Assembly (NCBI GenBank): GCA_965220135.1
Contig: OZ244802.1
Location: 2,084,239 to 2,148,238 of the forward strand
DNA length: 64,000 nucleotides
Source: Chloroflexota bacterium
Lineage (GTDB): Bacteria > Chloroflexota > UBA11872
Reading direction: 5' to 3'
Below the pieces are notes generated by a model, which worked only from the letters and a program-made list of their open reading frames with translations, was not told the origin of the DNA and did no database searches. The position numbers and the translations under genes were made by a program. Shown here one piece after another: positions 45,775 through 64,000 of this stretch. The stretch's first letter is position 1, and every line of letters begins with the position of its first letter.

Positions 45775-45960
45775 CTAGCCTCCGACTCCTGTGCCCAACG
45801 CGGGCGCGATCAGCGACACAATCAGCATAAGCACCGCCAGCAACGCCAGGATTGACCAGACCCCCGACAGCGTGATCCACCGCCGCGGGTTAAACCGCCG
45901 CGTTTTGCGCTCCTCGTCCGGCCGAACCCGTCGACGGCGCCGCCGGCGCCTTGCGCTCAC
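45775..45960 (-). CDS. small membrane protein with Arg-rich N-terminus (61 aa)
   Basis: MSARRRRRRRRVRP... followed by a single TM helix. It overlaps the upstream stop by 4 nt. Confidence 0.3.
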   Translation of the reverse strand: MSARRRRRRRRVRPDEERKTRRFNPRRWITLSGVWSILALLAVLMLIVSLIAPALGTGVGG

Positions 45961-46706
45961 GCCCTGGCCGCCGCGCGCCGGGGGCTCCGCGACCCGTTCC
46001 GCGAACCCATGTGCAAACCCGTCGCCGACGACAGGTCAAACCAGTCGTTCGCCGCCACCCGCAAGTCCTCCGACATCGCGTCCGCGAACGAATACGCCTC
46101 CACCCGCAGCCCGTGCTCCCGCAGGTAATCCACCATCGGCACGTAATCCCCGTCACCTGAAACCAGCGCCACCACGTCCATCGTCGGCAGCCGCCGGATC
46201 ACATCCATCACCAGCACGATATCCAGGTCCGCCTTCCGCGCCCCGTCCGCGAACACCTTGATCGGCTTCGTGACGATGTCGTACCCCTTCTCCCACACCG
46301 GCGCCACCGAGCGCTGATGCTCCAGCCGCCCCGCAAAATCAGCATAAATCGGGCAATACGCCCGTGCGTGGATCAGCCGACGGTCCGCCGTCACCTCGTC
46401 CAGCAGCTTCTTGAAATCCAGCCGGATTGGATCGTCCGGATCCCGGTCGCTCACATTCGCCGTGTCCACAAACACGCCCAGCCGCAACTGCGGCCCTGAG
46501 TGCGCCGTTCCCGACTGATTCCGCATCGCCCCCGCCATCCGCGTCAGCTCGCGCGCCGAATTCGCCAGCGCCCGCTCGCCCGGCCGTTCTTTTGAGATCA
46601 CATCCTTCAGTTCGTCCACCAGCATTCGCAGGTCCTGGCCGTCCGACGACACCTCGTCGCCCATGTCCAGGTCAATGTCTTCGGGAATAGCCGATACGCG
46701 TCGCAT
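45957..46706 (-). CDS. NYN (LabA-like) domain protein, second paralogue
   Basis: LGVFVDTANV...LVSGDGDYVPMVDYL, NYN-type. Confidence 0.6.
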   Translation of the reverse strand: MRRVSAIPEDIDLDMGDEVSSDGQDLRMLVDELKDVISKERPGERALANSARELTRMAGAMRNQSGTAHSGPQLRLGVFVDTANVSDRDPDDPIRLDFKKLLDEVTADRRLIHARAYCPIYADFAGRLEHQRSVAPVWEKGYDIVTKPIKVFADGARKADLDIVLVMDVIRRLPTMDVVALVSGDGDYVPMVDYLREHGLRVEAYSFADAMSEDLRVAANDWFDLSSATGLHMGSRNGSRSPRRAAARA

Positions 46707-47287
46707 TACTTGTCACTCTTTCGCGTGGAACCCGAGGCCGACGCCTTCCGCGGCGTTTGCTGGCCCGTGCTGTTCTTGCCCTGGTGCTCATCCGCCAGGT
46801 CCTGCAACCGTCGATCGATCTCGTTCTGCCGCGCTTCCTCGCGCTTCTCGCACTCCTCGCGCCGCCGCTTGATATCCGCCGCGTCCGGCGCAAACGACTC
46901 CAGCGCCTCCCAGATCGCGTTAATCCGGTCCGTATTCCCCCGGATCTCCAGGTTCGAGTTGAACGCCACCTCCGTCATCTCCTCAATGAACCCGGCCAGC
47001 CGCTTCTCCAGCGCCTCCACCTGGTTCCGCGTCTGGAACAGCGAGGTATCCAGCGACTTATCGCCGCGCTTGTACTGCCGCTCCGTGTCCACCACCTGCT
47101 TCCGCAATTCGCCGAAATTCTCCCGCAGCGCATTCAGATTGCGCGCGATCATCCGGTGATGCGTCAGGTGCGAGACCGTCTTATCCGAACTTCCCTTCGC
47201 GGCCGCCTCGGTTCCATTGGCCGAAGTCGCCGCGGTATCTGTTGACGCGCGCCGGCTACGCCGTGCACGCGAGCTCCTTGAAGCCAT
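46706..47287 (-). CDS. coiled-coil hypothetical protein
   Basis: 193 aa, charged, with heptad-like repeats. No recognisable domain. Confidence 0.4.
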   Translation of the reverse strand: MASRSSRARRSRRASTDTAATSANGTEAAAKGSSDKTVSHLTHHRMIARNLNALRENFGELRKQVVDTERQYKRGDKSLDTSLFQTRNQVEALEKRLAGFIEEMTEVAFNSNLEIRGNTDRINAIWEALESFAPDAADIKRRREECEKREEARQNEIDRRLQDLADEHQGKNSTGQQTPRKASASGSTRKSDK

Positions 47288-48266
47288 GAGTTAAAGCCGT
47301 CTCCATTTCGTTGGTCTTCAGGTTTCGTCCAATCACGTCGATGTACAGCGGCGCCGATCCGAACCGTCGGACCTCCCAGGCGCCCAGCACTACATCAACC
47401 AGCGCGCAGCCCTCCGCGGCGGGCATAAACCCCTTCGCGCGAACCACCTCGCCATAAACCCCCGCCGCCAGGTCGCCCACAAACGAGTCGACCCGCTCCG
47501 CGGGCAATCCACTGGTGTCCAGCACCAGCCGTTCCAATCCACTCCCAACCAAATCGTCATGCGGAACCCGCGAGTCAAGGTCCACATCATTGCCAGGTCC
47601 GGCCCTTCGCACGCCGCCTTGACGGATGGCCGCCAGCAAGACGTCCGGATGGACCTCGCAGAACGTCGTATCCACAATCGCCGCCTCGGCATTCAATCCG
47701 CGCGCCCATGCCCGCGCGTCCTGCCGCTCGGCGTCACTCGCCGCATCCGCCTTATTCACCAGCACCAGGTCCGCGTGGCGTACCTGGTTCGGAAAAAACT
47801 CACCCAGGTGATCCCGCACCAGCGCATACCGCGTCGCATCCAGCACCGTAATCACCGAATCCACGTCCACAATCGACCGCACCGCGGGACTCGCGAACAC
47901 GTGCGCCAACGTATCCGGCGAGGCCAGGCCCGTCGGTTCAATCACCAGCCGCTCCGGGCGCACCGATCGATGAATCTCATCCAGCGCCACCATCAGGTCG
48001 CCGCGCACCTCACAGCACACGCACCCGCCCACCAGTTGACGCACCGTCAGGTCATCCGAGGCCAGAACCACTTGATCCACGCCTTCAATCCCAAACTCAT
48101 TAACCAGCAGCGCCGTCGACTCCAGGGAAGCCAGTTGAGGAACCAGCGAACGCAACAGCGTCGTCTTGCCCGCCCCCAGGAACCCATACACGATGGTCGC
48201 CCTCATCGCGTGTCGGCTCCTTCGCCGGCGCCAGCCCATCCGGGGCATCCCGCCCACCCGGCGCAC
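47256..48266 (-). CDS. CobW/COG0523-family GTPase (putative metallochaperone)
   Basis: GFLGAGKTTLL P-loop, GCVCC motif and a C-terminal CobW_C-like domain. The likely start is ATG at 48206. Confidence 0.75.
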   Translation of the reverse strand: MRRVGGMPRMGWRRRRSRHAMRATIVYGFLGAGKTTLLRSLVPQLASLESTALLVNEFGIEGVDQVVLASDDLTVRQLVGGCVCCEVRGDLMVALDEIHRSVRPERLVIEPTGLASPDTLAHVFASPAVRSIVDVDSVITVLDATRYALVRDHLGEFFPNQVRHADLVLVNKADAASDAERQDARAWARGLNAEAAIVDTTFCEVHPDVLLAAIRQGGVRRAGPGNDVDLDSRVPHDDLVGSGLERLVLDTSGLPAERVDSFVGDLAAGVYGEVVRAKGFMPAAEGCALVDVVLGAWEVRRFGSAPLYIDVIGRNLKTNEMETALTHGFKELACTA

Positions 48267-48289
48267 AGCACACCAACGCCCGGCAGACC

Positions 48290-48860
48290 GTCAAAACCTA
48301 AGGGGATGATCATCCTCAAACATCACACCCCCAAGTATCGCACGCCCCCGTACGCCATCCCCGCGTCCGCATCCTCGACTTTCGTAGGGGCGGCGTCTGC
48401 GACCCGCCCGTCTTCCTCTTCTCCCCTCCCCCTCCGCCTCTCACCTCTCACTCCTCTTCGCTCACTCGTTCCCCATACCGTTCGTAGTGAGCCGGGCCAG
48501 AGTCCCCGGAGGCCCGTGTCGCCCCCCTTCCTCGTCCCGATCTTGCGTACCGGCCGGTTTCCAACCGGCCTCTTCCGCGCACCCAACCCAACCCACCCAA
48601 CCGTTCCTGGTGAGCCTGCCGAAGGGAATCTCGCCATCTCTTCCTCTTCTCCCCCCTCCGCTCTCTCTTCTCACTTCTCTGCCCTCACTCCTTCCCCACC
48701 CCGCCATCCCGGCGTCTTCGGCCGGGACCCAGCAGCAACCAACAAGCCCAGCGCCTCCTAGCTATCCCTGGCTCCCAACCCCGCAAGCGCTCGATGCCTC
48801 CTCATCCCTCCAAACCACCAGGTCACTCCTCTGCCCCTCCACCCCCTCCACCCCAAACCC
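48290..48860. repeat. CT-rich (polypyrimidine on + strand) tandem repeat array, locus A
   Basis: It shares three conserved cores with locus B: CCTGGTGAGCCTGCCGAA (48605-48622), the 33-bp identical CTCACTTCTCTGCCCTCACTCCTTCCCCACCCC (48669-48701), and ATCCCGGCGTCTTCGGCCGGGACCCAGCAGCAACCAAC (48705-48742). Confidence 0.55.
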
Positions 48861-49334
48861 ACTCTTCCCAAACGCCCGCAAACTCCGCCCGTTCTCCTCC
48901 CCCACATCCACCGCAATAAACCCATCCACCCCTTCCGCTTCAAACCCAAACCCCACCAGCAACCCGATCGCCGTCGACCCGATCCCCCGGTCCCAGAAAT
49001 CCTTCTGAATCTCGATATCGATCCGCCGGCAGTCCAGCCCCGGATTCCGCCGCAGAATCCGCTCCATGTTCATTTCCTGAAGCCAGCACTCGCCCACCGG
49101 CCGACCCTCAAACTCAATGACGAAACAGTAGGCGCTGCGAGAGATGCTGCGCATGATCTTCTTGACCTGCCCGAGGCTGTACTTCCTCTCGTTCGAGTCG
49201 CAATAGGAGGCAATCTCCGGGTCATTCCACAACCCAAGAACCAACTCCCAATCCCCCTCCGTCAATGGCCGCAGTACTACCGCCCCCGCCCGCAGCGTCA
49301 CGTTGTGGGTCCGAAGCCTCTCGCTCGCCATCAC
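48762..49334 (-). CDS. GNAT family N-acetyltransferase (C-terminal tail encoded by the CT-rich repeat)
   Basis: 190 aa with a GNAT fold pattern. The last about 30 codons (FGVEGVEGQ...) are the antisense of the repeat, so the true stop may be earlier. Confidence 0.55.
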   Translation of the reverse strand: MMASERLRTHNVTLRAGAVVLRPLTEGDWELVLGLWNDPEIASYCDSNERKYSLGQVKKIMRSISRSAYCFVIEFEGRPVGECWLQEMNMERILRRNPGLDCRRIDIEIQKDFWDRGIGSTAIGLLVGFGFEAEGVDGFIAVDVGEENGRSLRAFGKSGFGVEGVEGQRSDLVVWRDEEASSACGVGSQG

Positions 49335-49496
49335 CTACTTCCAGTCCTTCCTTGCCCCTCCGTCATTCCGTCGTCCAACCACGCACGACCTCCGATAACC
49401 CGCCCCTCGCATCCGGTCAATTCTCCGCGGTCGGGAGTCCATACGGGCGGGTGCGAATCGGATATGAGAAGCTTGTGATCTCCTACAATTCCCACC

Positions 49497-50240
49497 ATGC
49501 CCAGCTACGGCGTCACGCTCCTGTCCGGTGGACTCGACTCCACCACAGTCGCAGCGCTTGCAAGAGATCGCGTCGACAGCATGTCGGCGATCACATTCCA
49601 CTATGGCCAGAGTCACGCTAAGGAGGTTGAGTGCGCCGTGCGAATCGCCGGCATCTTGGGCATCGAACACAAGCTTCTCGATATCTCATTTCTCTCAGAC
49701 GTTGCTTGGTACTCCGCCCTGACCAATCCCGACCAGTTCGCGGTGCCGAATATCCGCTGCAGTGACGAGATTGGTCACGGCGTCCCGATAACTTACGTGC
49801 CGTTGCGAAATACCATCTTTCTGTCACTTGCAGCAGCCTACTTGGAGAGCAGTATTCTGCACGCCATTGAGGTCGAGCGCGTCGCTATATCGGAGGTTTC
49901 CGCCTACGTGTACTTGGCCCCAAACGCAATCGACTATAGCGGTTACCCAGACTGCCGCCCCGAGTTCTACGACACTATGGGACGGACGCTAGACCTGGGA
50001 AGCAAGCTTTGGACCGGGTACGGCATTTCCATTCAAGTCAAAACCCCAATCATTGACCTGTCGAAGGCTGAGATCGCCACACTCGGAATCAGTCTAAAGG
50101 CTCCATTGGAGCACAGTTGGAGTTGCTACAAGGGAGGCGAGTCTCCATGCGGCTTGTGTGACAGTTGCATCCTCCGTGCAAAGGGCTTTGCCGAAGCTGG
50201 AATCACTGACCCCCTACTTCTAAGGCTTAGTGCCGTCTGA
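49497..50240 (+). CDS. queC: 7-cyano-7-deazaguanine synthase
   Basis: LLSGGLDSTT PP-loop and a C-terminal zinc motif (CYKGGESPCGLCDSC), canonical for QueC. GC is lower than the flanking DNA. Confidence 0.85.
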   Translation: MPSYGVTLLSGGLDSTTVAALARDRVDSMSAITFHYGQSHAKEVECAVRIAGILGIEHKLLDISFLSDVAWYSALTNPDQFAVPNIRCSDEIGHGVPITYVPLRNTIFLSLAAAYLESSILHAIEVERVAISEVSAYVYLAPNAIDYSGYPDCRPEFYDTMGRTLDLGSKLWTGYGISIQVKTPIIDLSKAEIATLGISLKAPLEHSWSCYKGGESPCGLCDSCILRAKGFAEAGITDPLLLRLSAV

Positions 50241-50299
50241 CAATGCATCAAGTAGACCATCGATTGACTGGACACTGCTGTTCTCCAGCCGCAGAATGG

Positions 50300-51496
50300 T
50301 CACGGCGCAGTCGGTGCCTTGACTTGATAAGTTGCTGACTGGCCTGCCGGATTCGGACAGAAGTGCCTGAAGTCACACGCTACACATGTTGCTTCGTCCC
50401 TACAATTGGGGGACCAGGCTTGGAGAATGTTGGTACTAGCAGCTTCGGCAACAATATTCTCCTCTGCCTTACGAACCACTTGGTCGAATTCACGCAAGGC
50501 AGATTCGATACTACTGCGGGAAATTGGTATGACGCGGATTGCTCGACGTAAACGATAGGGCAACCCAAGTTGGCTTGTATCCATACCCGGTCGCCACATT
50601 CTCACAATCTGCTCGTCACGAGACCTAAGATCGGGGCACTCGTCTACGGTGCCGTCTACTAGTCCCCTTCGCAGGGCAGTCATCTCCTCCGATCCCGGCG
50701 TTAATTCGTTAACGTAGATCAGAATACCAGCTGCTACGGGCAGCGCATCGACCTGTCTCTGCCTTAACCAGGCATACGTCTGGATCTGCCAGTCTCCTTG
50801 TTCCCAGTACGGCTCGTCAAGCAGTGGGCGCCGAGTGCCCTTGTAATCCACGATGACTTCGAAGGTTCCCCTTAAATCTGGGCAAACACGGTGAACATGA
50901 TCCCGAATTACATTCCCCTCTGCTCCCTGTCTCAGAGTCATATGAGTTAGGACGTCAACAACTCCATGTACCTCATAGTTGTTACACCGAAGTGCAATAC
51001 CTCCGGTCGGCACGGCACGAGTACCGATTACTCTGCGTTCAGCCGCTGCAACCAGGGGAAATAGGTGAGGACCCAATTCGTTAACCGCGGTCTCGACGCG
51101 GTGATACGCCGAATCTCGGGCTTCGGTGCTCCGAGCTTGCTTGCCTTGTCGCCGGAGGGCATCCTCGACCGCGTTTGCAAAATAACCAATATCGTGCGTC
51201 GCCCAGTTTGGATTGGTTGCACCCCACTCGCGCGCAGTGCAAGGCCAAGGAAAAGTCGGCGGCTGGCTTCCACTCTGACGCGTCTCCGACCAGAAGCGAT
51301 AACACATTTCGAGAGTGCCGTGTATGAACTCGCCGAACCAAAGCTGCACAGGCCTTGAAGGAGGCAAAGCGCTACCATTGTGATACCGATATTGAAGTCT
51401 GCACCGCAAGTACGAAAGCAAGTCGCCAGTCAATGAGTAGGAAGGCACGATATGCTCCGGTCGCTTTACTTCAAGCTTCACGATTACATCTCCCAA
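50300..51496 (-). CDS. PD-(D/E)xK nuclease with C-terminal Fe-S cysteine cluster (Cas4/RecB-like)
   Basis: hhhDYK motif (EVIVDYKG), an N-terminal Cys and a C-terminal C-x5-C-x2-C-x5-C (CRDEATCVACDFRHFC). Confidence 0.5.
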   Translation of the reverse strand: MGDVIVKLEVKRPEHIVPSYSLTGDLLSYLRCRLQYRYHNGSALPPSRPVQLWFGEFIHGTLEMCYRFWSETRQSGSQPPTFPWPCTAREWGATNPNWATHDIGYFANAVEDALRRQGKQARSTEARDSAYHRVETAVNELGPHLFPLVAAAERRVIGTRAVPTGGIALRCNNYEVHGVVDVLTHMTLRQGAEGNVIRDHVHRVCPDLRGTFEVIVDYKGTRRPLLDEPYWEQGDWQIQTYAWLRQRQVDALPVAAGILIYVNELTPGSEEMTALRRGLVDGTVDECPDLRSRDEQIVRMWRPGMDTSQLGLPYRLRRAIRVIPISRSSIESALREFDQVVRKAEENIVAEAASTNILQAWSPNCRDEATCVACDFRHFCPNPAGQSATYQVKAPTAP

Positions 51497-53844
51497 AACG
51501 GCGGTTCAACCTTCACCGGTGCCCTTCTCGTCGCGTAGTCTTGTCTCCAGGGCCAGAACCCATCACGCCGCCAGCCAAGCGCGATATTCCTGATTTCTCT
51601 TTGCGTCGGAAAGCGAAGCAGCGCTTCGTTTCCCACTAGCATTAAAACCGACTGCGGTCGACTATAGGCAACATAGTAGAGTCTGACTAGATCATCAAAT
51701 GTACGATCCAACCCATCTCGATGTCCTCTCAGCGGAGTGGCCAGGAATGGCTCGATATCGTCCTCCGCTTGAACAATATTGGAAATGGAATCGGGAAATC
51801 TCAAGAATCTCTGCATCCGATGATTGCGACTGAAGCGGCTGCCTACATCGATGATAACTAAAGGAAACTCCAGTCCCTTCGACTGATGAATTGTCATGAA
51901 TTGAATTCGCTCCCGCGGAACACTAGGCATAATCTCCTCATCTACATCAATCTCGTCCTGTGCTATCGCTATAAGCGCATCGCGAATTAGACTCTCTCTA
52001 CTTCGCCTTACGTGAGGCCCATGGTTCTTGTCACTAGTATTCTGAAGTATCTGCATGCGGTAAGGCGATGCCTGGGCTGCACTGGCAAGGATACGAGTTA
52101 CGGCCTCCAACCATACTTGGTGTTCAGGGTCGGTCTGAAATCGCGGCATCCAAGTGACTAGAGTGAACACTAATTCTAAGGCTGGCCAATCCGCTGGAAT
52201 GTCAGCCACGACGTGGTCGGACGCTACTGCCTGCCAGTCGAGGATGAATCCCCGAAGACCACGCCCGTCGCTTGGTGTCGGATCACGGCGCAAAAATGAC
52301 TCGGCGCTCCTGCGCCATTGGTTCAGAAAGTAGGCTGCTTCCCTGGTGGGCATGACGTTGTTGACGAAATCTGAATTTGGATCGATTGATAGCAACACAA
52401 GGCCTAGTAGCGTCTGAACATCAGGAATAGACCGGAGTGAGTGGCCCCGAGGATTAAAGACTTCTATGCCCAGGCGTCCTAAGGCCGCCCTGAGTTTTCC
52501 GGGGAATCGAGCAGATTGAGTTCGACCCCACCGATCATAGGTGCTCTCTAACACCGAGTGAGACAAATACACGACATCTCCTATGGCACCTCCACTTGGA
52601 TCCAGATGGAACTCTTGGCCGTTACCTACCTCAATCTGACATCCACCTGCAAGATCCCGTAGGAAAGCTGCGAGATCATCAGCCAGCGTATCCTGATCAG
52701 GTCGAAACATACCTAGCACTGGGATATCCGAACTAGGAATAGATGCAACTACCAGAGGCTTCGCAGGGACAATACGCCCAGTTCCAAACGCAGGATCACT
52801 GGAAATATGTCGATTGAAGAACTCCACGATCTCTGGCTGTGACCGAAAGTTGCGCACCATATCGATTCGAGTTGTATGGCGCCCAGTGGCGTGACGACAG
52901 CGATCCGCAAAATCTGTGAACAACTCAACCGAACCACCACGAAAGCGATACATAGACTGATCGTCATCACCTACAATGGAAACTGCAAGATTGTCTGACT
53001 TCATCAATGCAAAATAGATTGCCTCCTGTAGTGGATTCGTGTCCTGGTACTCATCGACAAGCACGACACGCAAGCCATCGGTCCATTCGTTGAGTTGACC
53101 ACTGGCCAATTGCTCCAAGAAGTGCTCTTCAAGAGTAGCAAAGTCAAACACATTCGCCTGCGAACATTCGAGACGATATGTATCCAACATATCTACGACA
53201 ATTCGTTCCCCAGCACCACTCTGTGCATAAGCTGATGTATCCGCTCGGTCTTGAATCAGCCGCTCCATTAGACGTTTGGTCGTACGAAGCGATTCACCTT
53301 GATTTCTGGGAGGACGTCCATCAAAAGTGTAAGGCGCCAGCACCGAGTCGATGTCCTGTTTGTTGGCTCGATAAGTCTCTTGAAACACCCGACGCTTCAG
53401 AATGAGGGCACTAGCAGACGCGTCGGCCAATGTGGGAGCGATGGCGCCTACCGAACGAAACTCAGTGAGAATGTCATGTACAGTGCTGTCCAGAGTGTCA
53501 ATGCGACAGCGATTTATATCAATATGCAACACATCTTGCTTCTGAGACATAGCCTCCAGCAAGGAAGTTCCCCAATCCAACCAACGACTACGTAATTCCT
53601 GCGCCGCCTTGCGCGTGAAAGTTGTGATGAGAATGTCCTCTGGCATGATATCTTCAACAAGGACGTGACGGAGAGCACGCAACACCAGTACGGTGGTTTT
53701 GCCAGATCCCGGTCCCGCGACTATCTGCAGAACTTTATCCGAATCGTGCGTAATTGCATCTCGCTGAGCTCGATTGGCATCGTCAAATAGATTGCGATTC
53801 AGGAGATTGTCCACAAGATCCAAGAATACTGCGTCGTTAATCAT
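51484..53844 (-). CDS. UvrD/Rep-family superfamily-1 DNA helicase
   Basis: Walker A (AGPGSGKTT), motif II (VDEYQDTN) and UvrD_C-like motifs. 786 aa, lower GC. Confidence 0.75.
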   Translation of the reverse strand: MINDAVFLDLVDNLLNRNLFDDANRAQRDAITHDSDKVLQIVAGPGSGKTTVLVLRALRHVLVEDIMPEDILITTFTRKAAQELRSRWLDWGTSLLEAMSQKQDVLHIDINRCRIDTLDSTVHDILTEFRSVGAIAPTLADASASALILKRRVFQETYRANKQDIDSVLAPYTFDGRPPRNQGESLRTTKRLMERLIQDRADTSAYAQSGAGERIVVDMLDTYRLECSQANVFDFATLEEHFLEQLASGQLNEWTDGLRVVLVDEYQDTNPLQEAIYFALMKSDNLAVSIVGDDDQSMYRFRGGSVELFTDFADRCRHATGRHTTRIDMVRNFRSQPEIVEFFNRHISSDPAFGTGRIVPAKPLVVASIPSSDIPVLGMFRPDQDTLADDLAAFLRDLAGGCQIEVGNGQEFHLDPSGGAIGDVVYLSHSVLESTYDRWGRTQSARFPGKLRAALGRLGIEVFNPRGHSLRSIPDVQTLLGLVLLSIDPNSDFVNNVMPTREAAYFLNQWRRSAESFLRRDPTPSDGRGLRGFILDWQAVASDHVVADIPADWPALELVFTLVTWMPRFQTDPEHQVWLEAVTRILASAAQASPYRMQILQNTSDKNHGPHVRRSRESLIRDALIAIAQDEIDVDEEIMPSVPRERIQFMTIHQSKGLEFPLVIIDVGSRFSRNHRMQRFLRFPDSISNIVQAEDDIEPFLATPLRGHRDGLDRTFDDLVRLYYVAYSRPQSVLMLVGNEALLRFPTQREIRNIALGWRRDGFWPWRQDYATRRAPVKVEPPFWEM

Positions 53845-55610
53845 TGTTTCAAGTGCTTCGCCACATTTGTGTACATCATTAGTGTATTATGTGCTCCACG
53901 ACGCTTATTCCTATTGGAGCCACGGAAAATAAGCATGTGAATCCCTAAGCGCTTGCAGAAACTGCAGCGGCACTGTCGCCAAGGACGCTCTAGGAGTGTT
54001 CGCCTGTATTTTTCACGCATAGACTCGGTGTCGCTGGATCTCGCCAGATGCCTGTCATAGTCAAGGATTGCTTGGAGCACTTCACTCAAATTTACTCGGT
54101 CTCTATCATATTCTGAGAGCAAGCTGAGGACTTGGTGTTCCAGTGATTCGAGCCTAGCAATGTCTACGTTGATTCCTGTGAGACGACGCCTTGTGCGTCC
54201 ATCACTCGTCATTGGAACTCGGAGTGCAGCGTACCACTGGCCGTCTGGTGCCAAGTAGTTTTGGTCCGATCGCAGCCACGCCTTGCGGAAGTATGATGCG
54301 CTGTCGAAGCTGTCGACTCGCAGCTCTCGAAAGAGGGGCTGTAGTTTCGGTCTGTATATCCCAAAGAGATGAATCCAAGGTCTCTCTGGCAGTTCTTCTG
54401 CGACCTGCATGATAGCCCGTACGGTTTCTTCTATATCTGCATCCCCTCGCGGAACGAGACCGCCGACTGCTAGATGGCGATAGCCAAACTCGTAATAGGC
54501 ACGTACCGATTGAGCATACTGTGCTGGGTTCAAACCTTGGATCGTGCCCACCGGCGTGAAACGGGCCTTTCTCTCGGCAGCCGACTCAATGAATAGTCGA
54601 GCGTTCTCCTTCGTTATGGATATGCGTTCTTGTCGTTCTCCGTTGGAGAGCTCTATTCGTTCACCATTTTTTCGCGTTACGGCAACCGGGATGTGATCCA
54701 CCGATGCTCCAAAATCAAATCCATACGATTCATAGAGGGCGACTGCCTGATCAACAGAAATAGTCGGAGTCTCTTCGTTTACGTAGCTGAACGCTCCACA
54801 GTCTCCAAAGACGTATTGGTCAGCCGAGAGTCCGAAGTGCTTTCGCAAGTGTATCGGCGAGAGTGCGCTCTCCTCAGTCCCTCTCAGAGTCCGCAACGGA
54901 CCCTTCTTGGCCGCTTGTTGCGCGAGGCTAACCAGTATGCCATCGGACATGCGATTGGGCTGCATTAGCACAGAACAATGTCGATCTCCTCTTTCTGACC
55001 GAGTAGATCCGGAAAAGGAGTCGCCAGCGAAGTCGAAGCCTGGATCCAGCAAGTCATCCCAATCTGGTAGGAAATACCTGAAGCGACCAGAACCCGGCTC
55101 CACCGCAGCACTTACTCTCCGGGACGGCGATGGATGCGTAAGGAATGACTTGATTCGGTTGAGCTTTTTTCCAATGCCACCCGCAAACATTTCTAACTTC
55201 AGACCAAGCTTATCTAGGCCTGGCTGGACTGCGGGCATATAGTCCTTTCCCAATGACACATGAATCGAATGGTGGCTACCTGCCCATCCCGATAGTATTG
55301 ACGCACATGTGTCAGCGCTCGCGAGCGCCGTCGCACGATCCATCCGCCTGTCATAGTCACTAATCCCCTTGAGAATTCCGAACAAGCCGTGCTCGGCAGA
55401 AAGTACGGCTATGGATACATCCTCGGGCCACTGGTAGTCCCTTAGGAACTTTCTGACTACACGAAATGCCGGGCCGTCATACCGGTGCAATGCTGGCAGC
55501 AGGCCGTCGGAGTCAAGCTTGCGATCAGCACAACCTAGAATCAATAGCCTCTTATTCAAGCGACTCGAACCCAAACGAATATTGACGACATCTGGCTTGT
55601 GTCGAGCCAC
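53841..55610 (-). CDS. tRNA-guanine-transglycosylase-like (DpdA-type) protein with an uncharacterised ~180-aa N-terminal domain
   Basis: The C-terminal about 400 aa carry TGT-like motifs: FGDCGAFSY (compare DSGGFQ), IHLFGIYRP (compare VHLLGVGRP) and RVDSFDSASYFR (compare LFDCVLPTR). A terminal Zn-like CRCSFCKRLG...H is present. This is assigned by motif only. Confidence 0.5.
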   Translation of the reverse strand: MARHKPDVVNIRLGSSRLNKRLLILGCADRKLDSDGLLPALHRYDGPAFRVVRKFLRDYQWPEDVSIAVLSAEHGLFGILKGISDYDRRMDRATALASADTCASILSGWAGSHHSIHVSLGKDYMPAVQPGLDKLGLKLEMFAGGIGKKLNRIKSFLTHPSPSRRVSAAVEPGSGRFRYFLPDWDDLLDPGFDFAGDSFSGSTRSERGDRHCSVLMQPNRMSDGILVSLAQQAAKKGPLRTLRGTEESALSPIHLRKHFGLSADQYVFGDCGAFSYVNEETPTISVDQAVALYESYGFDFGASVDHIPVAVTRKNGERIELSNGERQERISITKENARLFIESAAERKARFTPVGTIQGLNPAQYAQSVRAYYEFGYRHLAVGGLVPRGDADIEETVRAIMQVAEELPERPWIHLFGIYRPKLQPLFRELRVDSFDSASYFRKAWLRSDQNYLAPDGQWYAALRVPMTSDGRTRRRLTGINVDIARLESLEHQVLSLLSEYDRDRVNLSEVLQAILDYDRHLARSSDTESMREKYRRTLLERPWRQCRCSFCKRLGIHMLIFRGSNRNKRRGAHNTLMMYTNVAKHLKQ

Positions 55611-55692
55611 CTCTCAAGACCAGGATAGCTTTGTCTCGTACCCGCCCGTTATTCACGATATCTATCGCCTTAGCCTGCGTGCTTCAAGTGAC

Positions 55693-56346
55693 TCATCGTA
55701 CTACCTTAATGGCCTGAGAAGTCTCCGCAAAGTTTGGCCTTGATCTGATCCAGCGGACAAGCGCGTAAACCAGAGGTGTATCTATAGCCGCGATGCCAAC
55801 CTTGACAAGGTATTGGGTGACCATCATGTTCAACAGAACTGGCCCAGGAACTGTACCGGCGAACGCAATAGATATGAATAGCGTAGTATCCACTGCTTGA
55901 GAAACCATGGTCGAGGCATTATTTCGGAACCATAGATGGCGACCGCTCGTGACTCGCCGTAGATGGTGAAAGACCAACACGTCACTATTTTGACTCACGA
56001 GGTACGCGAGCATCGATCCGAGGACAATTCGGGGAACCGCTCCTAGGATATCGTCATAAGATCCCTGACTCTCCCAAAAGCCTGCCGGCGGTAGTATTCG
56101 AGCTACATATACAAGAACCACCATAGCGACGCTTAGTGCAAAGCCATACCAAACAATGCGAGTTGCAACTTTGCGACCATAGAGCTCGGAAATCGTGTCC
56201 GTGACTAGGAACGTAAATGGGTAGGCGATCGTTCCTGCGGGAAGCACCCAGCCGTTTATATCGACTGGCTTGACGGCGACGATGTTTGCCACCACCAGCA
56301 AGGTCACGAAGCTCATCGCCAGGGCTGTTAACGTCACACGACACAT
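55693..56346 (-). CDS. YhhQ/DUF165-family queuosine-precursor (preQ0/preQ1) transporter
   Basis: AYPFTFLVTDTISELYGRK signature and 6 TM helices, at about 217 aa. Confidence 0.7.
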   Translation of the reverse strand: MCRVTLTALAMSFVTLLVVANIVAVKPVDINGWVLPAGTIAYPFTFLVTDTISELYGRKVATRIVWYGFALSVAMVVLVYVARILPPAGFWESQGSYDDILGAVPRIVLGSMLAYLVSQNSDVLVFHHLRRVTSGRHLWFRNNASTMVSQAVDTTLFISIAFAGTVPGPVLLNMMVTQYLVKVGIAAIDTPLVYALVRWIRSRPNFAETSQAIKVVR

Positions 56347-56535
56347 CCTGAGGTTGGCATCTGTCTGGCGAAGGACTCCGACGAAGAATCAAATCTCGCG
56401 ATCCGCTCTCGGAAACGACTGTGGCGAATGATGATGTGTGATGGCGTCAAGGGTCGATTCACCGCTTACGTGGAGGCTCGTGGCGCGTCCGGGATCATAT
56501 CGCGAATGGAATGTCCTTGCCGCTGGCCAACCTGG

Positions 56536-56575
56536 TAGCCCGGATGGCATTCGAACCCACGACCTCCGCAATTCG
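56536..56575 (-). other. tRNA 3'-half-like fragment (variable loop, T-arm, ACCA); not a complete tRNA
   Basis: The minus strand reads ...GAGGUCGUGGGUUCGAAUGCCAUCCGGGCUACCA. It has the GGUUCGAAU T-loop and ends in ACCA. The T-stem is mispaired and no 5' acceptor strand could be found. Confidence 0.2.
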
Positions 56576-56639
56576 CCGTTGCCTTGCCTGCCCGACGAAC
56601 TCCGGAACCCCCGCCGCGCCAAATCGGAAAAGGCACGTC

Positions 56640-57409
56640 TCAGGCTGCACCCGCTCCGTGCTGTCAGCCACCGCCCCGTCATCATCCCGGCGTCCGCGGC
56701 CCGGGCCCAGCAGCAACCAACCACCAAACCGCACCTGGCGTCCCTGGTGAGCCTGTCGAACCACACCCCTGCCAACCCACCCCGACCCAAAACCCCCAAC
56801 CCCCGCCTCCCCCGCTCACCGCTCACTCAGTCTTTCTCCGCCTCCGCCTCTCACTCCTCACTTCTCTGCCCTCACTCCTTCCCCACCCCTTCTTGCCCTT
56901 GACTCCCACTCCACCACGCTGTACTCTATATGAGTAAGACATACCGCCCCACCCCCATGCCCTTCGCCCGCTTCCCCCCGCTCCCGTCCCTCCGCCTTCC
57001 CCCGTTCCAGGCGATCCTCTCAACCCTCCTCGCAATCCTCTCCACCACAGACCGATGCCGTCGTCCCTCTTCTCACCTGACGGAAAACGCTGGAGCCTGC
57101 CCGCCGACTCGAACCGCGGGTAAGCAACCGCGCGGGGCGTCAAGTTCCGCGGGGCGCGCAGGTCGTTCCCTTCCCCTGGGAGCGATGCGGAACCCGTCCC
57201 AAGCTCGGCGAGCGATTCCGGAGTCCTCGGCGGAAATTGCTGACAAGTCTTCCGGTCAAGGCGTCAACCCGCCCACGCTGGTGCCTCGGGCCACCCCCAA
57301 CCCGCCAGAACACACCCCGCCCATCCCCCCGTCACACCCCCAACCCCAGCCCTCCACCCCCACCGCCGACACGCCCCGAACCCACCAAAAAAGCGCCCCA
57401 AATCACCTC
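56640..57409. repeat. CT-rich tandem repeat array, locus B
   Basis: ATCCCGGCGTCCGCGGCCCGGGCCCAGCAGCAACCAAC (56683-56720), CCTGGTGAGCCTGTCGAA (56743-56760) and the 33-bp identical core (56857-56889). It continues CT-rich up to the IS insertion point. Confidence 0.55.
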
Positions 57410-57486: not shown

Positions 57487-59127
57487 CTACGCGTTCGGCA
57501 ATCCTGGCATCGCTGGTTGCGGCAAGTGACGACCGGCCACGGTCGGCGTATGGAACCGCTGCCCGGCCAGAATCTCCTCGACGGTGAGTATCTGCATGCG
57601 CGGGTAGTCAATCCCCGCCACGCGCATCGTGCCCGCTTCGGCCATTTCCTTGAGGAAGTTGCGCGTCTGGCCGGTGCTGCGCGGGCGCATCAGAATCAAT
57701 CCCGCCATCTGCGCGTCGTCACGCTCCAGCACGCCGCGTAGGGCGCGCACCTGCGCGATGGTGACGTGCGTTCCGCCCTTCACTTCGACCGTCATGCTTT
57801 GCAGGTCCGGCTCGCCTGGCACGTGGAAGTAGAGCCGACCGTCAATCCCGCCGTCGCCGGTGCGCTTCGCGGTCGGGAACGCGTCAACGGACTCAATCGC
57901 CCATTCCTGAAACTCGAACTTGTTATGCCGCCACTTCGCCGCGGCGGCTTCCAGCGTTTCGGGCACGCCGTCGATGGTGAAGTCGCGGTCTTCAATGAGT
58001 CCGCACCGCTCGCCTAGCCGTAGGCGCACGACGCGGTTAATGGCGTGGAACGCGCGGTCGATGCCGATCCAGCGGCGCTTGAGCTTGTGGGCCGCTTCCA
58101 GCGTGGTCGCGCATCCGCAGAACGGATCCAACACGACGTCGCCCGGGTTGCTGGATGCGCGTATCAGCCGCTCCATCAATGCCAGCGGCTTCTGGGTCGC
58201 GTAGCCCATGCGCTCTTCGGCCATGTTGTGAATGGGCCGAATGTCGGTGAGCACGTCCTGTAGTGGCGTGCCCTTGCTCTCATCCAGGTACCGCTTCAAG
58301 CGCGGCATGCCGCCCTTACGCTTCGGCCAGTGGATGCGCCCTTGCGCGTCCAGGGCGTCCAGGGCGTCCGGTGAGCGTGACCAGTGGCGACCTTTAGCCG
58401 ATACGTCAATTCCTCGCCACGGGCGCCCTGTAGCGCCGTCCTGTACGACACCGGCGCCGGTGAGGTCCGCGCGTGACCAGCGGCGGCCGTCCGGGTCTTC
58501 GTGCGGGTAGAACGTCTGCACGTACGCATCGTCGTACGCCTGGTAGACGCGGTTCCAGGTGTAGCGGTCGGACTTCGAGTAGAACAGGATGGTGTCATGC
58601 ACCGGCCCGTAGCGGCGCGCGCCACTGTGCGCGCTCGTCCGCTTCCAGATCAGCTCGTTTCGGAATTGCCCATGCCCAAACAGGCCATCCATGACGACCT
58701 TGAGGTAGTGCCCCGCCGTCGGGTCGCAGTGCAAGTAGAGCGAGCCGGTCGGCTTGAGAATCCGGTGCATCAATAGCAGCCGTTCCGTCATGTGGACGAG
58801 GTAGGCGAGTAGGCGCGGGTTCGTGTAGCGCAGCGCGCGCAGCCACAGCCGCCATAAATTCACCGTCGCGTCGTCCATGCCGGAATGCTGCATCAGGATG
58901 GGCATTTCCCGCGCGGCGCGTTCAGTCTCCGCGTTGTACTCCCACATATCCGAGAACGCGTCCACTTCGTCGGGGAGAGGCTTGCCCGTTTCGTCTCTAT
59001 ATATCGAGTTGTACTGGCGCTGCGAGTTGAATGGTGGGTCCAGGTAAATAAGGTCCACGCTGGCGAGCCGGAAGTCCTGCATCACGGTCCGGCAATCGCC
59101 GTAGTAGAGCTGGTTTGTCCAGGTCAC
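57487..59127 (-). CDS. beta-class N6-adenine/N4-cytosine DNA methyltransferase fused to a C-terminal Mrr-like PD-(D/E)xK nuclease domain (IS passenger)
   Basis: Motif IV DLIYLDPPFN comes before motif I DPFCGCATTLEAA (the beta order, PF01555-like). The C-terminal GDGGIDGRLYF...MTVEVKGG resembles Mrr_cat. The probable GTG start at 59127 overlaps the transposase stop (GTGA). Confidence 0.65.
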   Translation of the reverse strand: MTWTNQLYYGDCRTVMQDFRLASVDLIYLDPPFNSQRQYNSIYRDETGKPLPDEVDAFSDMWEYNAETERAAREMPILMQHSGMDDATVNLWRLWLRALRYTNPRLLAYLVHMTERLLLMHRILKPTGSLYLHCDPTAGHYLKVVMDGLFGHGQFRNELIWKRTSAHSGARRYGPVHDTILFYSKSDRYTWNRVYQAYDDAYVQTFYPHEDPDGRRWSRADLTGAGVVQDGATGRPWRGIDVSAKGRHWSRSPDALDALDAQGRIHWPKRKGGMPRLKRYLDESKGTPLQDVLTDIRPIHNMAEERMGYATQKPLALMERLIRASSNPGDVVLDPFCGCATTLEAAHKLKRRWIGIDRAFHAINRVVRLRLGERCGLIEDRDFTIDGVPETLEAAAAKWRHNKFEFQEWAIESVDAFPTAKRTGDGGIDGRLYFHVPGEPDLQSMTVEVKGGTHVTIAQVRALRGVLERDDAQMAGLILMRPRSTGQTRNFLKEMAEAGTMRVAGIDYPRMQILTVEEILAGQRFHTPTVAGRHLPQPAMPGLPNA

Positions 59128-59999
59128 GCTCGCACCGCGTCGCGCAGGAACACGTCGAATGCGTTCGGGATGTCCCGCGCGTTGAACTTGTAGCAGGCTT
59201 CCGTCACGTAGGCGTGCGCGTGCTTCTTCGAGTAGAAGTGGTGGCTGCCCCACCATGCCCGCTTCAGGAGCGCCCAAAAGCTCTCCATCGTGTTGACGTG
59301 AATCATGCCGTCCACGTAGCGGGCCGCGTGGTCTACGACCGCGTGGCGCATCGTCCGGCCAACGCGCCGGTAGGCCGGCCACTGGTCCGTCATGAGTACG
59401 CTGGCGTCTTTGTCCACGTTGCGCTCAATGAACGCTTGCAGGTCTTTCCCGCGCACGCGCGGGGATGGTTCGGCGGCAACGCGCCCGCCGCGCTCTACGA
59501 CGCCGATGATCGGGAGCTTGCGGGTACCACGACCGCGCGGGGCCTGCGGGTGATTGTCGTCGTCGCGCTTGTTGCGCTTGCGCGGCTTCCCGCCGATGTA
59601 GGCTTCGTCCGCTTCGACGATGCCGACCATCAGGTCCGGCTCGCCCACCATCGCGCTGCGAATCTTCATGAGCATCCGGTACGCGGTCTTCTGCGGGATG
59701 TCGAGGTCGCGCCCGAGTTGCGGGCTGCTAATGGACTTCTTCGCGTTCAGCACCAGCGAGATTGCCAGGAACCACTTGCGCAGGTCGGTTCGGGTCTTCG
59801 AGAAAATCGTGCCACTGAGCACGGTGAATGCCGCGCGGCAGGCGTGGCAATTGCGGCGGCCGATGCCGTCCGTCCGGTGCCCGACGCGCTCGGAACCGCA
59901 GTGCGGGCAGACGGGCTGCTTGCCCCAGCGGACGCGCTCCAGGTGCTCAATGCAGGCTTCCTGGTCGGGGAACTGGTCGAAGATTCGGATGAGGTCCAT
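59124..59999 (-). CDS. IS1595-family transposase
   Basis: N-terminal zinc ribbon (CPHCGSERV...CHACRAAF) and a DDE_Tnp_IS1595 core (SVLMTDQWPAY...). Confidence 0.8.
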   Translation of the reverse strand: MDLIRIFDQFPDQEACIEHLERVRWGKQPVCPHCGSERVGHRTDGIGRRNCHACRAAFTVLSGTIFSKTRTDLRKWFLAISLVLNAKKSISSPQLGRDLDIPQKTAYRMLMKIRSAMVGEPDLMVGIVEADEAYIGGKPRKRNKRDDDNHPQAPRGRGTRKLPIIGVVERGGRVAAEPSPRVRGKDLQAFIERNVDKDASVLMTDQWPAYRRVGRTMRHAVVDHAARYVDGMIHVNTMESFWALLKRAWWGSHHFYSKKHAHAYVTEACYKFNARDIPNAFDVFLRDAVRA

Positions 60000-60042
60000 G
60001 CGGTCACCTGTCTCGTTTGCCGTGCCTTAGTGTAGCACATTT

Positions 60043-60080
60043 CAGTCACAAGTGACTAGGCCCGTTTAGAAAAAACTCTT
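60043..60080. repeat. IS1595-family terminal inverted repeat (right)
   Basis: Reverse complement of the left inverted repeat (CAGTCACAAGTGACTAGGCCCGTTTAGAAAAAACTCTT). Confidence 0.6.
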
Positions 60081-60185
60081 CCCGCGCGCGAGCCCCCCAG
60101 TTCCCACGGCTCTCGCCCCCGCTCTTTTCCCCGCTTCCTCCCCGTCTGCTCTCACCGCTCACTACTCTCAGCTCACTCCTTCTTC
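60081..60185. repeat. CT-rich repeat, partial unit C (right of the IS, downstream of polA)
   Basis: CTCTCACCGCTCACTACTCTCAGCTCACTCCTTCTTCTC resembles CCGCTCACCGCTCACTCAGTC...CTCACTCCTCACTTCTC in locus B. This implies the IS inserted into a pre-existing repeat array. Confidence 0.4.
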
Positions 60186-62915: not shown

Positions 62916-64000
62916 CCGGGTCCGGCCGACGCTGGACCCGCTCCCTGGCCGGCCAGATCGCCATCCTGGCCGCCGTCCCCACGGCCGCCGTCCTGCTCGC
63001 CGTCGCCGTTCTCACCCTCTTCCTCAACCAGCACTCGCGCCTCGATACCCTCCTCCAGGCCGAGACCGACCGCGCCCTCTCACTCGCCACCCCCATCGAA
63101 CGCGCCCTAACCGACACCCTCCGCACCAATCTCCGCTCCACCTCCCCCACGCCACCCAACCTCTTCCTCCACCGCACCACCGACGCCAGCTCAACCCAGA
63201 CGCTCGACGAAGCCCTCCGAGCCCCAGCGACGGCAATCATTCAACAAGCTCGTTCAACCGACGCCCTCGCTCTCTCCAACGTCGTCCAAACCACCGACGG
63301 CCAATCCGCAATCGTCGCCGCCATTCCCGACGGCTCCGTCATCCGCCTCGGCGTCATCCAGGTCTCCTCGGCAGCCGCTGAATCCCCCTGGCGCACTCTC
63401 CTCCAGGACCTCATGCCCACCGCTCCCAACGCCACCCTCGGCCTCGTCGACGCCGCCGCCTACGTCGCCTTCCACCAGGACCTCGACCAATTTGGCCGCT
63501 CCGTCACGTCCTCCGGCCAACCCGGCACCCGGCTCTTCCAGACAGCCTCCGGCGCCCTCCTCCGCGGTCCACTGGTCGGCACCCAGCGCATCACCGGCTT
63601 CGCGCCCCTTGGCGCCACCGGCTGGCGCCTGATCGTCGAGCGCCCCTGGACTGCCGCCCTCGAGGCCTTCAGCGGACCCGGCCCTCTCGTGCTCATCCCC
63701 CTCCTCGGCGCCGCCTTGCTGCCGGCCGCCCTCATCGGCCTTACTGCCGTCCGCGCCACCCGCCGCTTGCGCGACCTCGCCCTGGCCGCCCGCCGTATCG
63801 CCTCCGGCGACTTCCGTCCCATTCCCACCCCGGCTCGCACCGGTGATGAGATCGAGGACCTCACCACCCAGTTCGAATCCATGGCCCGCCAGCTCCAGTC
63901 CCTGTATGGCTCACTCGAACAGCGCGTCGCCGACCGCACCCGCGAGCTCGAAATCGTCGTCCGCGTCGCCCGCTCCATCACCCAGACCCTCGACGCCCAC
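62897..64000 (+). CDS. membrane sensor protein (periplasmic sensing domain, TM, HAMP), 3'-partial; likely histidine kinase or other signalling protein
   Basis: My own translation of an open frame running to the window end, not in the track. It gives a TM helix (LAGQIAILAAVPTAAVLLAVAVLTLF), an extracellular domain of about 200 aa, a second TM and a HAMP-like region (RRLRDLALAARRIASGDFRPIP...TGDEIEDLTTQFESMARQL). The start is uncertain (GTG 62897). Confidence 0.5.
   Translation, partial: MQQRSPTGSGRRWTRSLAGQIAILAAVPTAAVLLAVAVLTLFLNQHSRLDTLLQAETDRALSLATPIERALTDTLRTNLRSTSPTPPNLFLHRTTDASSTQTLDEALRAPATAIIQQARSTDALALSNVVQTTDGQSAIVAAIPDGSVIRLGVIQVSSAAAESPWRTLLQDLMPTAPNATLGLVDAAAYVAFHQDLDQFGRSVTSSGQPGTRLFQTASGALLRGPLVGTQRITGFAPLGATGWRLIVERPWTAALEAFSGPGPLVLIPLLGAALLPAALIGLTAVRATRRLRDLALAARRIASGDFRPIPTPARTGDEIEDLTTQFESMARQLQSLYGSLEQRVADRTRELEIVVRVARSITQTLDAH

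Follow-up and report, generated by a model that had tools for sequence, protein, structure and literature searches.

We analysed a 64,000-nucleotide (nt) stretch of the genome of a Chloroflexota bacterium (contig OZ244802.1, positions 2,084,239 to 2,148,238), referred to here as the window, and focused on an island of five genes that includes a homologue of the DNA transglycosylase DpdA. The open reading frames (ORFs) and domains of the island are as follows:

49497..50240, plus strand: queC, 7-cyano-7-deazaguanine (preQ0) synthase (Pfam QueC, E 1.1e-59)
50300..51496, minus strand: PD-(D/E)xK nuclease of the Cas4/AddB class with a predicted 4Fe-4S cluster, candidate restriction effector
51484..53844, minus strand: superfamily 1A (SF1A) helicase of the UvrD family (Pfam UvrD-helicase, PF00580, E 2.7e-47), motor partner of the nuclease
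53841..55085, minus strand: DpdA domain (aa 176-589 of the maximal ORF), predicted DNA-guanine transglycosylase inserting preQ0 into DNA
55086..55559, minus strand: N-terminal DUF6884/YaaA-fold domain fused to DpdA (the maximal ORF reaches 55610)
55693..56346, minus strand: yhhQ (Vut_1), transporter of the queuosine precursors preQ0/preQ1 (Pfam Vut_1, E 2.4e-56)

All five ORFs proposed in the initial annotation were recovered from the ORF list of the window at the same coordinates and on the same strands, and the overlaps that it described, of 13 nt between the nuclease and helicase genes and of 4 nt between the helicase gene and the DpdA ORF, were reproduced exactly. The minus-strand operon begins with yhhQ. 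Scans for promoters and terminators as operon signals gave no excess over shuffled sequence, and no Rfam match to a preQ1 riboswitch was obtained upstream of yhhQ or queC at E≤1 in the interval 47.5-58 kb.

The drop in GC content that had been read as a sign of foreign origin was borne out. GC content is 0.48-0.56 across 49.5-56.3 kb versus 0.63-0.72 on either side, and calculated for each segment as a whole it amounts to 0.523 in the island and to 0.672 and 0.665 in the flanks. Among the comparison loci, which carry L-numbers, the closest relative found was L034, a Dehalococcoidia metagenome-assembled genome (MAG). Positions 49495-55560 of the window gave a single 6,079-nt alignment to L034 with 70.6% nucleotide identity, and a second alignment covered positions 55744-56337 with 71% identity; window DNA outside these two intervals did not align to L034. 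Because the DNA homology ends there, the island is delimited by the start codons of queC and yhhQ. The five genes share 71-79% amino acid identity (about 71% nucleotide identity) with their L034 counterparts, and all of them are intact with conserved catalytic residues. The GC content of the cassette core is below that of the flanks in several unrelated hosts as well, for example in L003 (0.53 versus 0.69 and 0.67). The island is thus horizontally acquired, foreign DNA, and the cassette behaves as mobile DNA, given its low GC in several hosts, the recombinases beside it in L031, and the methylase gene, IS1595 element, repeats and tRNA-like fragment near it in the window.

The ORF resembling tRNA-guanine transglycosylases (TGTs) had been proposed to be of the DpdA type, and profile searches agreed. 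It scored 346.5 bits on the NCBIfam model NF041059 (cut-off, 200) and matched the PADLOC DpdA model with an E value of 3.9e-98. Pfam detects a TGT domain in it, but the tRNA-TGT models stayed far below their cut-offs (TIGR00449, 25.8 versus 47.6; arcTGT, 38.8 versus 350). The only solved relative found by sequence was DpdA of Salmonella Montevideo (PDB 7UI4; E 7.9e-70). Mapping on this structure placed D270 at Asp95, the general acid/base, D436 at Asp256, the nucleophile, D305 at Asp130, which binds the base, and W445 at Phe265, the aromatic wedge. The C-terminal Zn-type C-x-C-x2-C...H motif is kept. At the position of His181 the window protein has Q358, glutamine being the residue of canonical TGTs at this position. 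The essential residues, shown or proposed, are those of Gedara et al., who mutagenised S. Montevideo DpdA. Judged by alignment, the active site is intact. The TGT homologue is a true member of the DpdA family and, as such, a predicted DNA transglycosylase rather than a tRNA enzyme.

The initial annotation described a 589-aa TGT fusion with an unknown N-terminal domain. The maximal ORF and the fusion are real, but the protein is likely shorter. A TTG codon at 55559 gives a protein of 572 aa beginning MNKRLLILGC, and homologues of 570-576 aa start with MDKRLLILGC or MNKRLLVLGC. TTG 55559 is most likely the true start, as it agrees with the starts and lengths of homologues and with the end of the L034 alignment at 55560. 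The fusion is invisible in public annotation because the gene model P0001 (465 aa) omits most of the DUF6884 domain; the model of the nuclease, P0121, has 382 aa, and both are shorter than the conserved proteins.

The N-terminal domain can also be given a family. By itself, the domain of the window protein yielded a sub-threshold match to Pfam DUF6884; among the family members sampled, 26 of 26 matched DUF6884 (best E 3.4e-11) and 21 matched YaaA. In hhalign comparisons the domain matched DpdC with 87% probability (E 3.9e-6), which is moderate direct support, and it matched the longer N termini of cyanobacterial and Paenibacillus DpdA fusions with 94%; these long N termini in turn matched DpdC with 97.8% (E 7.5e-13, 184 aligned columns). 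C27, K31, Y44, G46 and S71 are among the residues invariant in the family. A strand-Cys-x3-Lys motif is common to the N-terminal domain and DpdC once the RefSeq models of DpdC are extended by about 36 codons, and Y-x-G and LSA-x-x-G-L motifs are likewise found in both; the same domain is widespread without DpdA. Authentic DpdC proteins from annotated plasmid dpd clusters scored 287-470 bits on the PADLOC DpdC models and 23.6 bits on DUF6884. In the GATOR-GC paper DUF6884 is a domain of DpdC, earlier work placed DpdC in DUF328/YaaA, and DpdC is the protein that converts preQ0-DNA to DNA containing 7-amido-7-deazaguanine (ADG). Pfam, profile-profile and fold comparisons thus point to a DUF6884/YaaA-fold domain that is predicted to be a remote homologue of the N-terminal half of DpdC and that has been fused to DpdA. 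DpdC-type chemistry in this domain is plausible but not established, because only half of DpdC is covered and the DUF6884 family is broad, with 1173 representative clusters that include many stand-alone proteins of about 150 aa. By sequence, neither the profile of this domain nor that of the nuclease matched any PDB entry.

The comparison with DpdC also bears on existing gene models. RefSeq models of DpdC, labelled "hypothetical protein," seem to start about 36 or more codons late (L068:10965-11921, L070:6978-7886, L072:3888-4892 and L071:3912-4883); the in-frame sequence upstream carries a conserved hhhTxCTxxK(R/H) motif, and PADLOC DpdC matches begin at profile position 37. For Skermanella DpdC, the annotated ORF represents the C-terminal 160 aa of a 323-aa frame. 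DUF6884-like domains with Cys-x3-Lys are also common on viral contigs from IMG/VR (L161-L240), often C terminal in large proteins (median maximal ORF, about 670 aa) and without DpdA or que genes within 6 kb.

The helicase matched UvrD_C (PF13361, E 3e-8) in its C-terminal part in addition to PF00580, and its translation contains the Walker A motif GPGSGKT (K49) and DEYQD, in line with the SF1 UvrD-type helicase first proposed. The nearest solved structures by sequence were UvrD, AddA, PcrA, Rep, AdnB, RecB and GajB. It reached none of the NCBIfam equivalog cut-offs for UvrD, PcrA, Rep or AddA and thus represents a distinct subfamily. For the nuclease, the Cas4-like class with an Fe-S cysteine motif was upheld, and the C-x5-C-x2-C-x5-C string (C365, C371, C374 and C380) is there; across the nuclease family, however, the invariant cysteines are C32, C371, C374 and C380, one N terminal and three C terminal. 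The D...D/E-x-K and QxxxY motifs are present, and the fold, closest to those of ACE1, AdnA, Dna2, Cas4, RecB and AddB, supports the Cas4/AddB class. Both proteins keep all catalytic motifs, and their folds match those of processive DNA-end-processing enzymes.

Homologues of the fusion number more than 1000 and those of the nuclease more than 1800; the majority come from MAGs of Chloroflexota, Latescibacterota, Acidobacteriota, Planctomycetota and other phyla. Synteny was assessed with tblastn in 67 species-level genomes with relatives of the fusion, which span Chloroflexota, Latescibacterota, Binatia, Acidobacteriota, Planctomycetota, Nitrospira, Clostridia, Thiosymbion and other groups. The helicase gene lies directly downstream of the fusion in 58 of the 67 loci and the nuclease gene follows in 55, with constant order and strand; ORF clustering agreed. 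We also ran the reverse test, in which metagenome contigs were searched with the nuclease profile and the best 80 of 485 relatives were taken, giving 40 loci with at least 4.3 kb of upstream sequence. The helicase was directly upstream in 39 of these 40, and DpdA was within 8 kb in 35; four of the five loci without DpdA are explained by contig ends. The DpdA-bearing loci comprised 21 of the fusion type and about 14-15 with classical DpdB and DpdA, the latter usually with QueC/D/E. On plasmids, all three of the closer nuclease homologues (3/3) were on replicons carrying dpdA, and in Bradyrhizobium pB41S5 the nuclease and the helicase have orthologues (51% and 45% identity, respectively) that are encoded divergently beside dpdC-dpdB-dpdA-dpdB-queE-queD-queC. 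These results demonstrate a conserved core that runs from the fusion through the UvrD-type helicase to the Cas4/AddB-type nuclease, and they show that modules for 7-deazaguanine DNA modification, in two different architectures, have the helicase-nuclease pair as their dedicated companion. The combination had been presented as a possible new minimal variant; it is no one-off, since the fusion has more than 1000 homologues and loci of this kind occur in dozens of phyla.

Not every gene of the island belongs to this core. QueC and YhhQ are canonical, as the initial annotation held, and both exceed NCBIfam equivalog thresholds (TIGR00364, 178 bits, cut-off 150.3; TIGR00697, 188.7 bits, cut-off 50.95). 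QueC is a member of the AANH superfamily. However, queC was found in only 11 and yhhQ in only 7 of the 67 related loci, which makes them accessory genes of precursor supply outside the fusion-helicase-nuclease core. QueE was found neither in the 67 fusion-type loci nor in the window.

Other genes can accompany or replace the pair. In 10 loci two genes directly follow the fusion, one for a 607-aa HerA ATPase (PADLOC HerA, E 2e-77) and one for an unannotated protein of about 640 aa (L005, L007, L008, L011, L012, L014, L032, L037, L040 and L054; e.g., L011:11610-13544 and L012:13535-15361). These two genes replace the UvrD-nuclease pair in four loci and precede it in six. In L034, the same five-gene block as in the window is followed, beyond queC, by dpdD, dpdK and dpdJ, and in Leptolyngbya sp. 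GGD the helicase-nuclease pair lies inside a classical cluster, between DndB/DpdB and DpdD, a PLD protein (DpdK) and a 1526-aa DEAD helicase (DpdJ). Homologues of dpdD/K/J are detectable in a handful of about 150 related loci. With queries from L034, Leptolyngbya and E. cloacae, no match to dpdD/K/J was obtained in the 64-kb window even at E<10; homology of the window to L034 stops at the queC start, beyond which lie an unrelated GNAT gene and repeats. Effector modules are thus interchangeable and stackable, as in other modification-based defences.

The partner of HerA, with no Pfam or PADLOC match, is a candidate new effector. A third effector type was considered for loci with neither pair and discarded, as the fusion is accompanied by recombinases in L031 and by unrelated or unannotated genes in L045 and L056. 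In L031 (11532-14243), from an Armatimonadota MAG, genes for a serine recombinase and a tyrosine integrase occupy the place of effector genes behind the fusion, which suggests that this cassette is carried on an integrative element. A divergent second subtype of the helicase-nuclease pair, 23-31% identical to that of the window and with a nuclease of about 300 aa versus about 393 aa, follows the same fusion in L002, L003, L004, L006, L007, L011, L017, L022, L024, L038, L050, L051, L053 and L065. An unannotated protein of about 317 aa, again with no Pfam or PADLOC match, adjoins the three-gene core on either side in L020, L022, L025, L038, L041, L042, L044, L053, L060, L061 and L067 (e.g., L067:8973-9926) and occurs also in L084, L108, L109, L129, L149, L152 and L154; it is a possible accessory component.

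With respect to known systems, the island resembles the classical Dpd system (dpdA-K; Salmonella Montevideo, Thiaville 2016; Gedara 2023) in that its DpdA shares the catalytic residues, a domain related to DpdC is present, preQ0 genes and YhhQ are frequent companions, and the island behaves as a mobile one, with probable self-marking with the deoxynucleosides of preQ0 and ADG (dPreQ0/dADG); in L034 and Leptolyngbya, dpdD/K/J even adjoin the block. It differs in that the window lacks DpdB, and in that the DpdC-like part is a domain of about 160 aa fused to DpdA, whereas classical DpdC is a free protein of about 310 aa. In addition, neither the window nor the majority of related loci have dpdD-K, and the UvrD and Cas4-class pair takes the place of the restriction operon. 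Two DpdB queries used in tblastn detected DpdB in classical-type loci but had no match in the window or the 67 fusion-type loci. The island is therefore not classical Dpd, since DpdB and dpdD-K were tested for and are absent, although it shares DpdA and the DpdC-related domain. Nor is it type IV CBASS or Qat: PADLOC returned a negligible QatC match (E 0.008) and called none of the island proteins a cyclase or OGG. The earlier view that the combination matches neither system thus stands.

Long DpdC-DpdA fusions of cyanobacteria and Paenibacillus, annotated as DpdA, likewise have a DUF6884/DpdC-like part fused to the N terminus of DpdA (examples are Allocoleopsis PCC 7113 WP_015211588, Nostoc NIES-3756 and Picosynechococcus PCC 73109). 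Their N-terminal part of about 290-310 aa holds more of DpdC, however, their DpdA part is only about 34% identical to that of the window, and the genes around them encode DEAD/DEAH helicases and a second TGT-like protein. Because such fusions exist in RefSeq as "DpdA" and one of them, from Allocoleopsis PCC 7113, was drawn in a 2016 review, the idea of a DpdC-DpdA fusion is not wholly new. On the plasmids of Nostoc NIES-3756 (L069) and Picosynechococcus PCC 73109 (L075) the order is long fusion, small hypothetical gene, DEAD/DEAH helicase, second short TGT-like gene and DEAD/DEAH helicase; the latter plasmid also carries a UvrD and PD-(D/E)xK pair with a 384-aa unannotated gene 10 kb away.

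Parallels to the pair exist as well. AddAB/AdnAB/RecBCD, Dna2 and the Argonaute-associated Cas4-family enzyme ACE1 share the helicase and nuclease families, the Cys ligands and QxxxY. The island has no second, inactive helicase subunit and no evident Chi-type regulation, and its pair is linked to DpdA, not to recombination genes or Argonaute. The best PADLOC matches of the helicase were GajB-type UvrD helicases, as in Gabija, but its partner is a Cas4-class PD-(D/E)xK nuclease and none of the five island proteins matches GajA. GajA is an OLD-family ATPase-TOPRIM protein. UvrD-Cas4 fusions have been described as accessories of Type III restriction-modification (R-M) and Dcm systems (Hudaiberdiev et al. 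2017); there, too, an SF1 UvrD helicase and a Cas4-family Fe-S nuclease stand beside a DNA-modification enzyme and are read as defence. In the window, by contrast, the two are separate, translationally coupled genes, and the chemistry is 7-deazaguanine base exchange instead of methylation. The same authors regarded an operon of unfused UvrD and Cas4-like genes in Clostridiales as "not indicative of defence" and possibly repair-related, and the legend of their figure lists an AANH-superfamily gene for it; this operon may be the same system, seen but unrecognised. In the BREX-related capture (BRC) systems (NAR 2026), a TGT/DpdA-type enzyme without DpdB or DpdC is the presumed self-marker of a composite defence, and HerA is likewise a partner in a subset of the loci analysed here, but the window has no PglZ, BrxC-like or STAND protein, and its GNAT gene does not recur in related loci. 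Full-text literature searches returned no paper that connects DpdA in this manner with a UvrD/Cas4-type pair or with HerA; an earlier mention in Thiaville 2016 or Yuan 2018 is possible. The island is most likely a small, previously undescribed version of Dpd self/non-self DNA-marking defence.

Our preferred reading, which we consider rather probable, is that the island is a mobile, compact Dpd-type 7-deazaguanine DNA R-M cassette in which the fusion writes the mark and the helicase-nuclease pair restricts. Our confidence is high that it contains a Dpd-type modification module and moderate that the pair is the restriction arm, a role inferred from gene association alone. YhhQ would import preQ0 or a related precursor and QueC would make preQ0 from 7-carboxy-7-deazaguanine (CDG), with the rest of the pathway provided by the host or by salvage. 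Going by its conserved catalytic residues, the C-terminal DpdA domain would exchange particular guanines in the host's own DNA for preQ0 by a TGT-type double displacement. In the least certain step, the N-terminal domain might hydrate the nitrile to dADG, as DpdC does, or might instead help DpdA to engage duplex DNA in place of DpdB; independence from DpdB could be owed to this fused domain or to the helicase. The cotranslated helicase and Fe-S nuclease would form a machine that attacks unmarked DNA, and they are the only candidate effector here because dpdD-K are absent from the window. A bolder form of this reading, for which we claim tentative standing, holds that three genes suffice for a self-contained R-M system that would be widespread in uncultivated phyla: one polypeptide would insert preQ0 into duplex DNA without DpdB and make dADG through its minimal DpdC-like Cys-Lys domain, the helicase-nuclease would discriminate the marks, and the pair would be the unrecognised restriction module of many islands with only dpdA-C, such as the alphaproteobacterial plasmids examined.

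Several observations weigh against the interpretation as a complete R-M cassette. For bacterial DpdA, activity depended on the DpdB ATPase in vivo as well as in vitro (Gedara et al.), and DpdB is absent here, although phage DpdA2 functions without it. A DpdC-like role of the N-terminal domain is called into question by the PADLOC DpdC models, none of which matched the domain of the window even at E<10, by the alignment, which covers only about 110 N-terminal columns of DpdC and leaves its C-terminal half absent, and by viral contigs, on which 78 of 80 DUF6884 loci had no DpdA or que gene nearby. The source of the precursor is in doubt, as folE, queD and queE were not found in the window. No reader domain for the modification was identified, and PADLOC recognised no complete system in the island. 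As for the restriction role of the pair, both of its proteins are of repair-type families, and its coexistence with dpdD/K/J in L034 and Leptolyngbya means that it could be an auxiliary or repair module.

These last points lead to an alternative that we rate as unlikely but worth weighing, namely, a modification-only cassette in which the helicase and nuclease aid the reaction, by opening DNA and replacing DpdB, or clear abasic, nicked or covalent intermediates. All fusion-type loci lack DpdB, and Gedara et al. suggested that ATP hydrolysis might open DNA for DpdA in a helicase-like manner; UvrD and the RecB/AddB/AdnAB classes are classical repair proteins, Hudaiberdiev et al. read the Clostridiales operon as possibly repair-related, and in L034 and Leptolyngbya a candidate restriction set, dpdD/K/J, is already present. 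However, the pair is not simply a substitute for DpdB, because it is also found beside classical modules with one or two DpdB genes of their own. Moreover, classical DpdA/B/C modify DNA in vitro with neither helicase nor nuclease, some loci exchange the pair for the HerA pair, whose ATPase type is listed in PADLOC as a defence component, and Type III R-M and Dcm systems are known to have UvrD-Cas4 fusions as accessories. The arrangement in L034, where dpdD, dpdK and dpdJ directly follow the five genes, would also fit a truncated remnant of such an island that has lost dpdD-K and now modifies DNA without restriction or with weak auxiliary restriction; homology of the window ends exactly at the queC start, where a GNAT gene and repeats take over, and no integrase is present. 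We hold this to be quite improbable, since most fusion-helicase-nuclease loci with 10-kb flanks lack dpdD/K/J, so that the three-gene unit normally stands alone, and since the five window genes are intact down to their catalytic residues while the 64 kb contain no remnants of dpdD/K/J.

The suggestion of the initial annotation that the cassette is prophage derived and serves anti-restriction hypermodification fared worse, and we now regard it as highly improbable. Phage DNA is indeed protected by phage DpdA enzymes, which need no DpdB, the island is foreign, and one viral-labelled contig of 143 kb (L161) carries the full fusion-helicase-nuclease set, the only viral locus to do so. However, tblastn of the fusion against 50,697 phage records gave one partial match with 32% identity, and among the island ORFs there are none for phage structural or replication proteins or for an integrase. 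In more than 60 species the loci are on the chromosome, and phage 7-deazaguanine clusters do not have a constant helicase-nuclease partner. That these are housekeeping queuosine genes, with a TGT homologue acting on tRNA, is scarcely credible. QueC and YhhQ are indeed canonical proteins of the queuosine pathway and Pfam does call a TGT domain, but the bit scores favour DpdA (346 versus a cut-off of 200) over the sub-threshold tRNA-TGT models, 7UI4 is the best solved relative, and the foreign GC content, the patchy distribution across many phyla and the strict linkage to a DNA helicase and nuclease speak for DNA.

Among known R-M systems, Dpd is described as the largest and the most complex, and GATOR-GC grouped comparable islands with only dpdA-C as lacking a restriction operon. 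The association found here in both directions suggests that some islands regarded as modification-only do carry a restriction module, namely, the helicase-nuclease pair. If the three-gene version is correct, it would offer a simpler handle on how 7-deazaguanine marks are written without DpdB, on the role of the DpdC/DUF6884 fold and on how a nuclease senses the mark. Family members carry no annotation beyond "DpdA" or "PD-(D/E)XK nuclease," and many of their gene models are truncated; defence-system finders miss the system for these reasons. It is widespread, unannotated and experimentally tractable, and it extends a known principle rather than introducing a new one.

The flanks of the island contain the following further features:

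48670..48702, plus strand: left direct-repeat copy, exact over 33 nt, inside a CT-rich repeat region
48762-49334, minus strand: GNAT acetyltransferase, between the left repeat and queC, with intermediate GC (about 0.60)
56533..56564, minus strand: tRNA-3'-half-like fragment at the right GC boundary, its minus strand reading ...GGTCGTGGGTTCGAATGCCATCCGGGCTACCA
56857..56889, plus strand: right direct-repeat copy, exact over 33 nt
57487-59382, minus strand: N6/N4 DNA methylase, right flank
59124-59999, minus strand: IS1595 transposase, right flank

The direct repeats, tRNA-like fragment and IS1595 element reported to flank the island all exist. The 33-nt repeat, CTCACTTCTCTGCCCTCACTCCTTCCCCACCCC, is present in exactly two copies in the window, with 0 expected by chance. 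The repeat families D1-D3 around it are common to both island flanks in differing order and look like a dispersed repeat element of this genome, not a simple att duplication. CT-rich intergenic segments at 48250-49000, 56500-57250, 60000-60500 and 63000-63500 have an extremely negative GC skew of -0.40 to -0.55. The tRNA-3'-half-like fragment is single copy in the window and is a possible remnant of an integration site. A tRNA integration site as such was considered and set aside: ARAGORN called no complete tRNA anywhere in the window, the fragment is unduplicated, and the repeats are shuffled rather than arranged as an att pair.

To the left of the repeats, at 45957-47287 on the minus strand and upstream of a CobW-type GTPase gene, lie genes for an NYN-domain protein (249 aa) and an unannotated 193-aa coiled-coil-like protein that have no evident relation to the island. 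The GNAT gene was entertained as a component of the system on account of the GNAT-TGT links in BRC systems and of loci L158 and L159, and was rejected, as no related locus has a homologue; the GNAT genes upstream of the cassette in L158 and L159 are unrelated. About 260 nt are shared between the methylase ORF and the IS1595 transposase ORF, which lie on one strand, and the true start of the methylase is therefore probably downstream of its ORF start. The C-terminal portion of the methylase, about 180 aa, has no Pfam match, so that the nuclease part of the methyltransferase-nuclease fusion first proposed is at most putative, and weak homologues of this protein are encoded within 10 kb of the DpdA cassette in L013, L015, L022 and L152.

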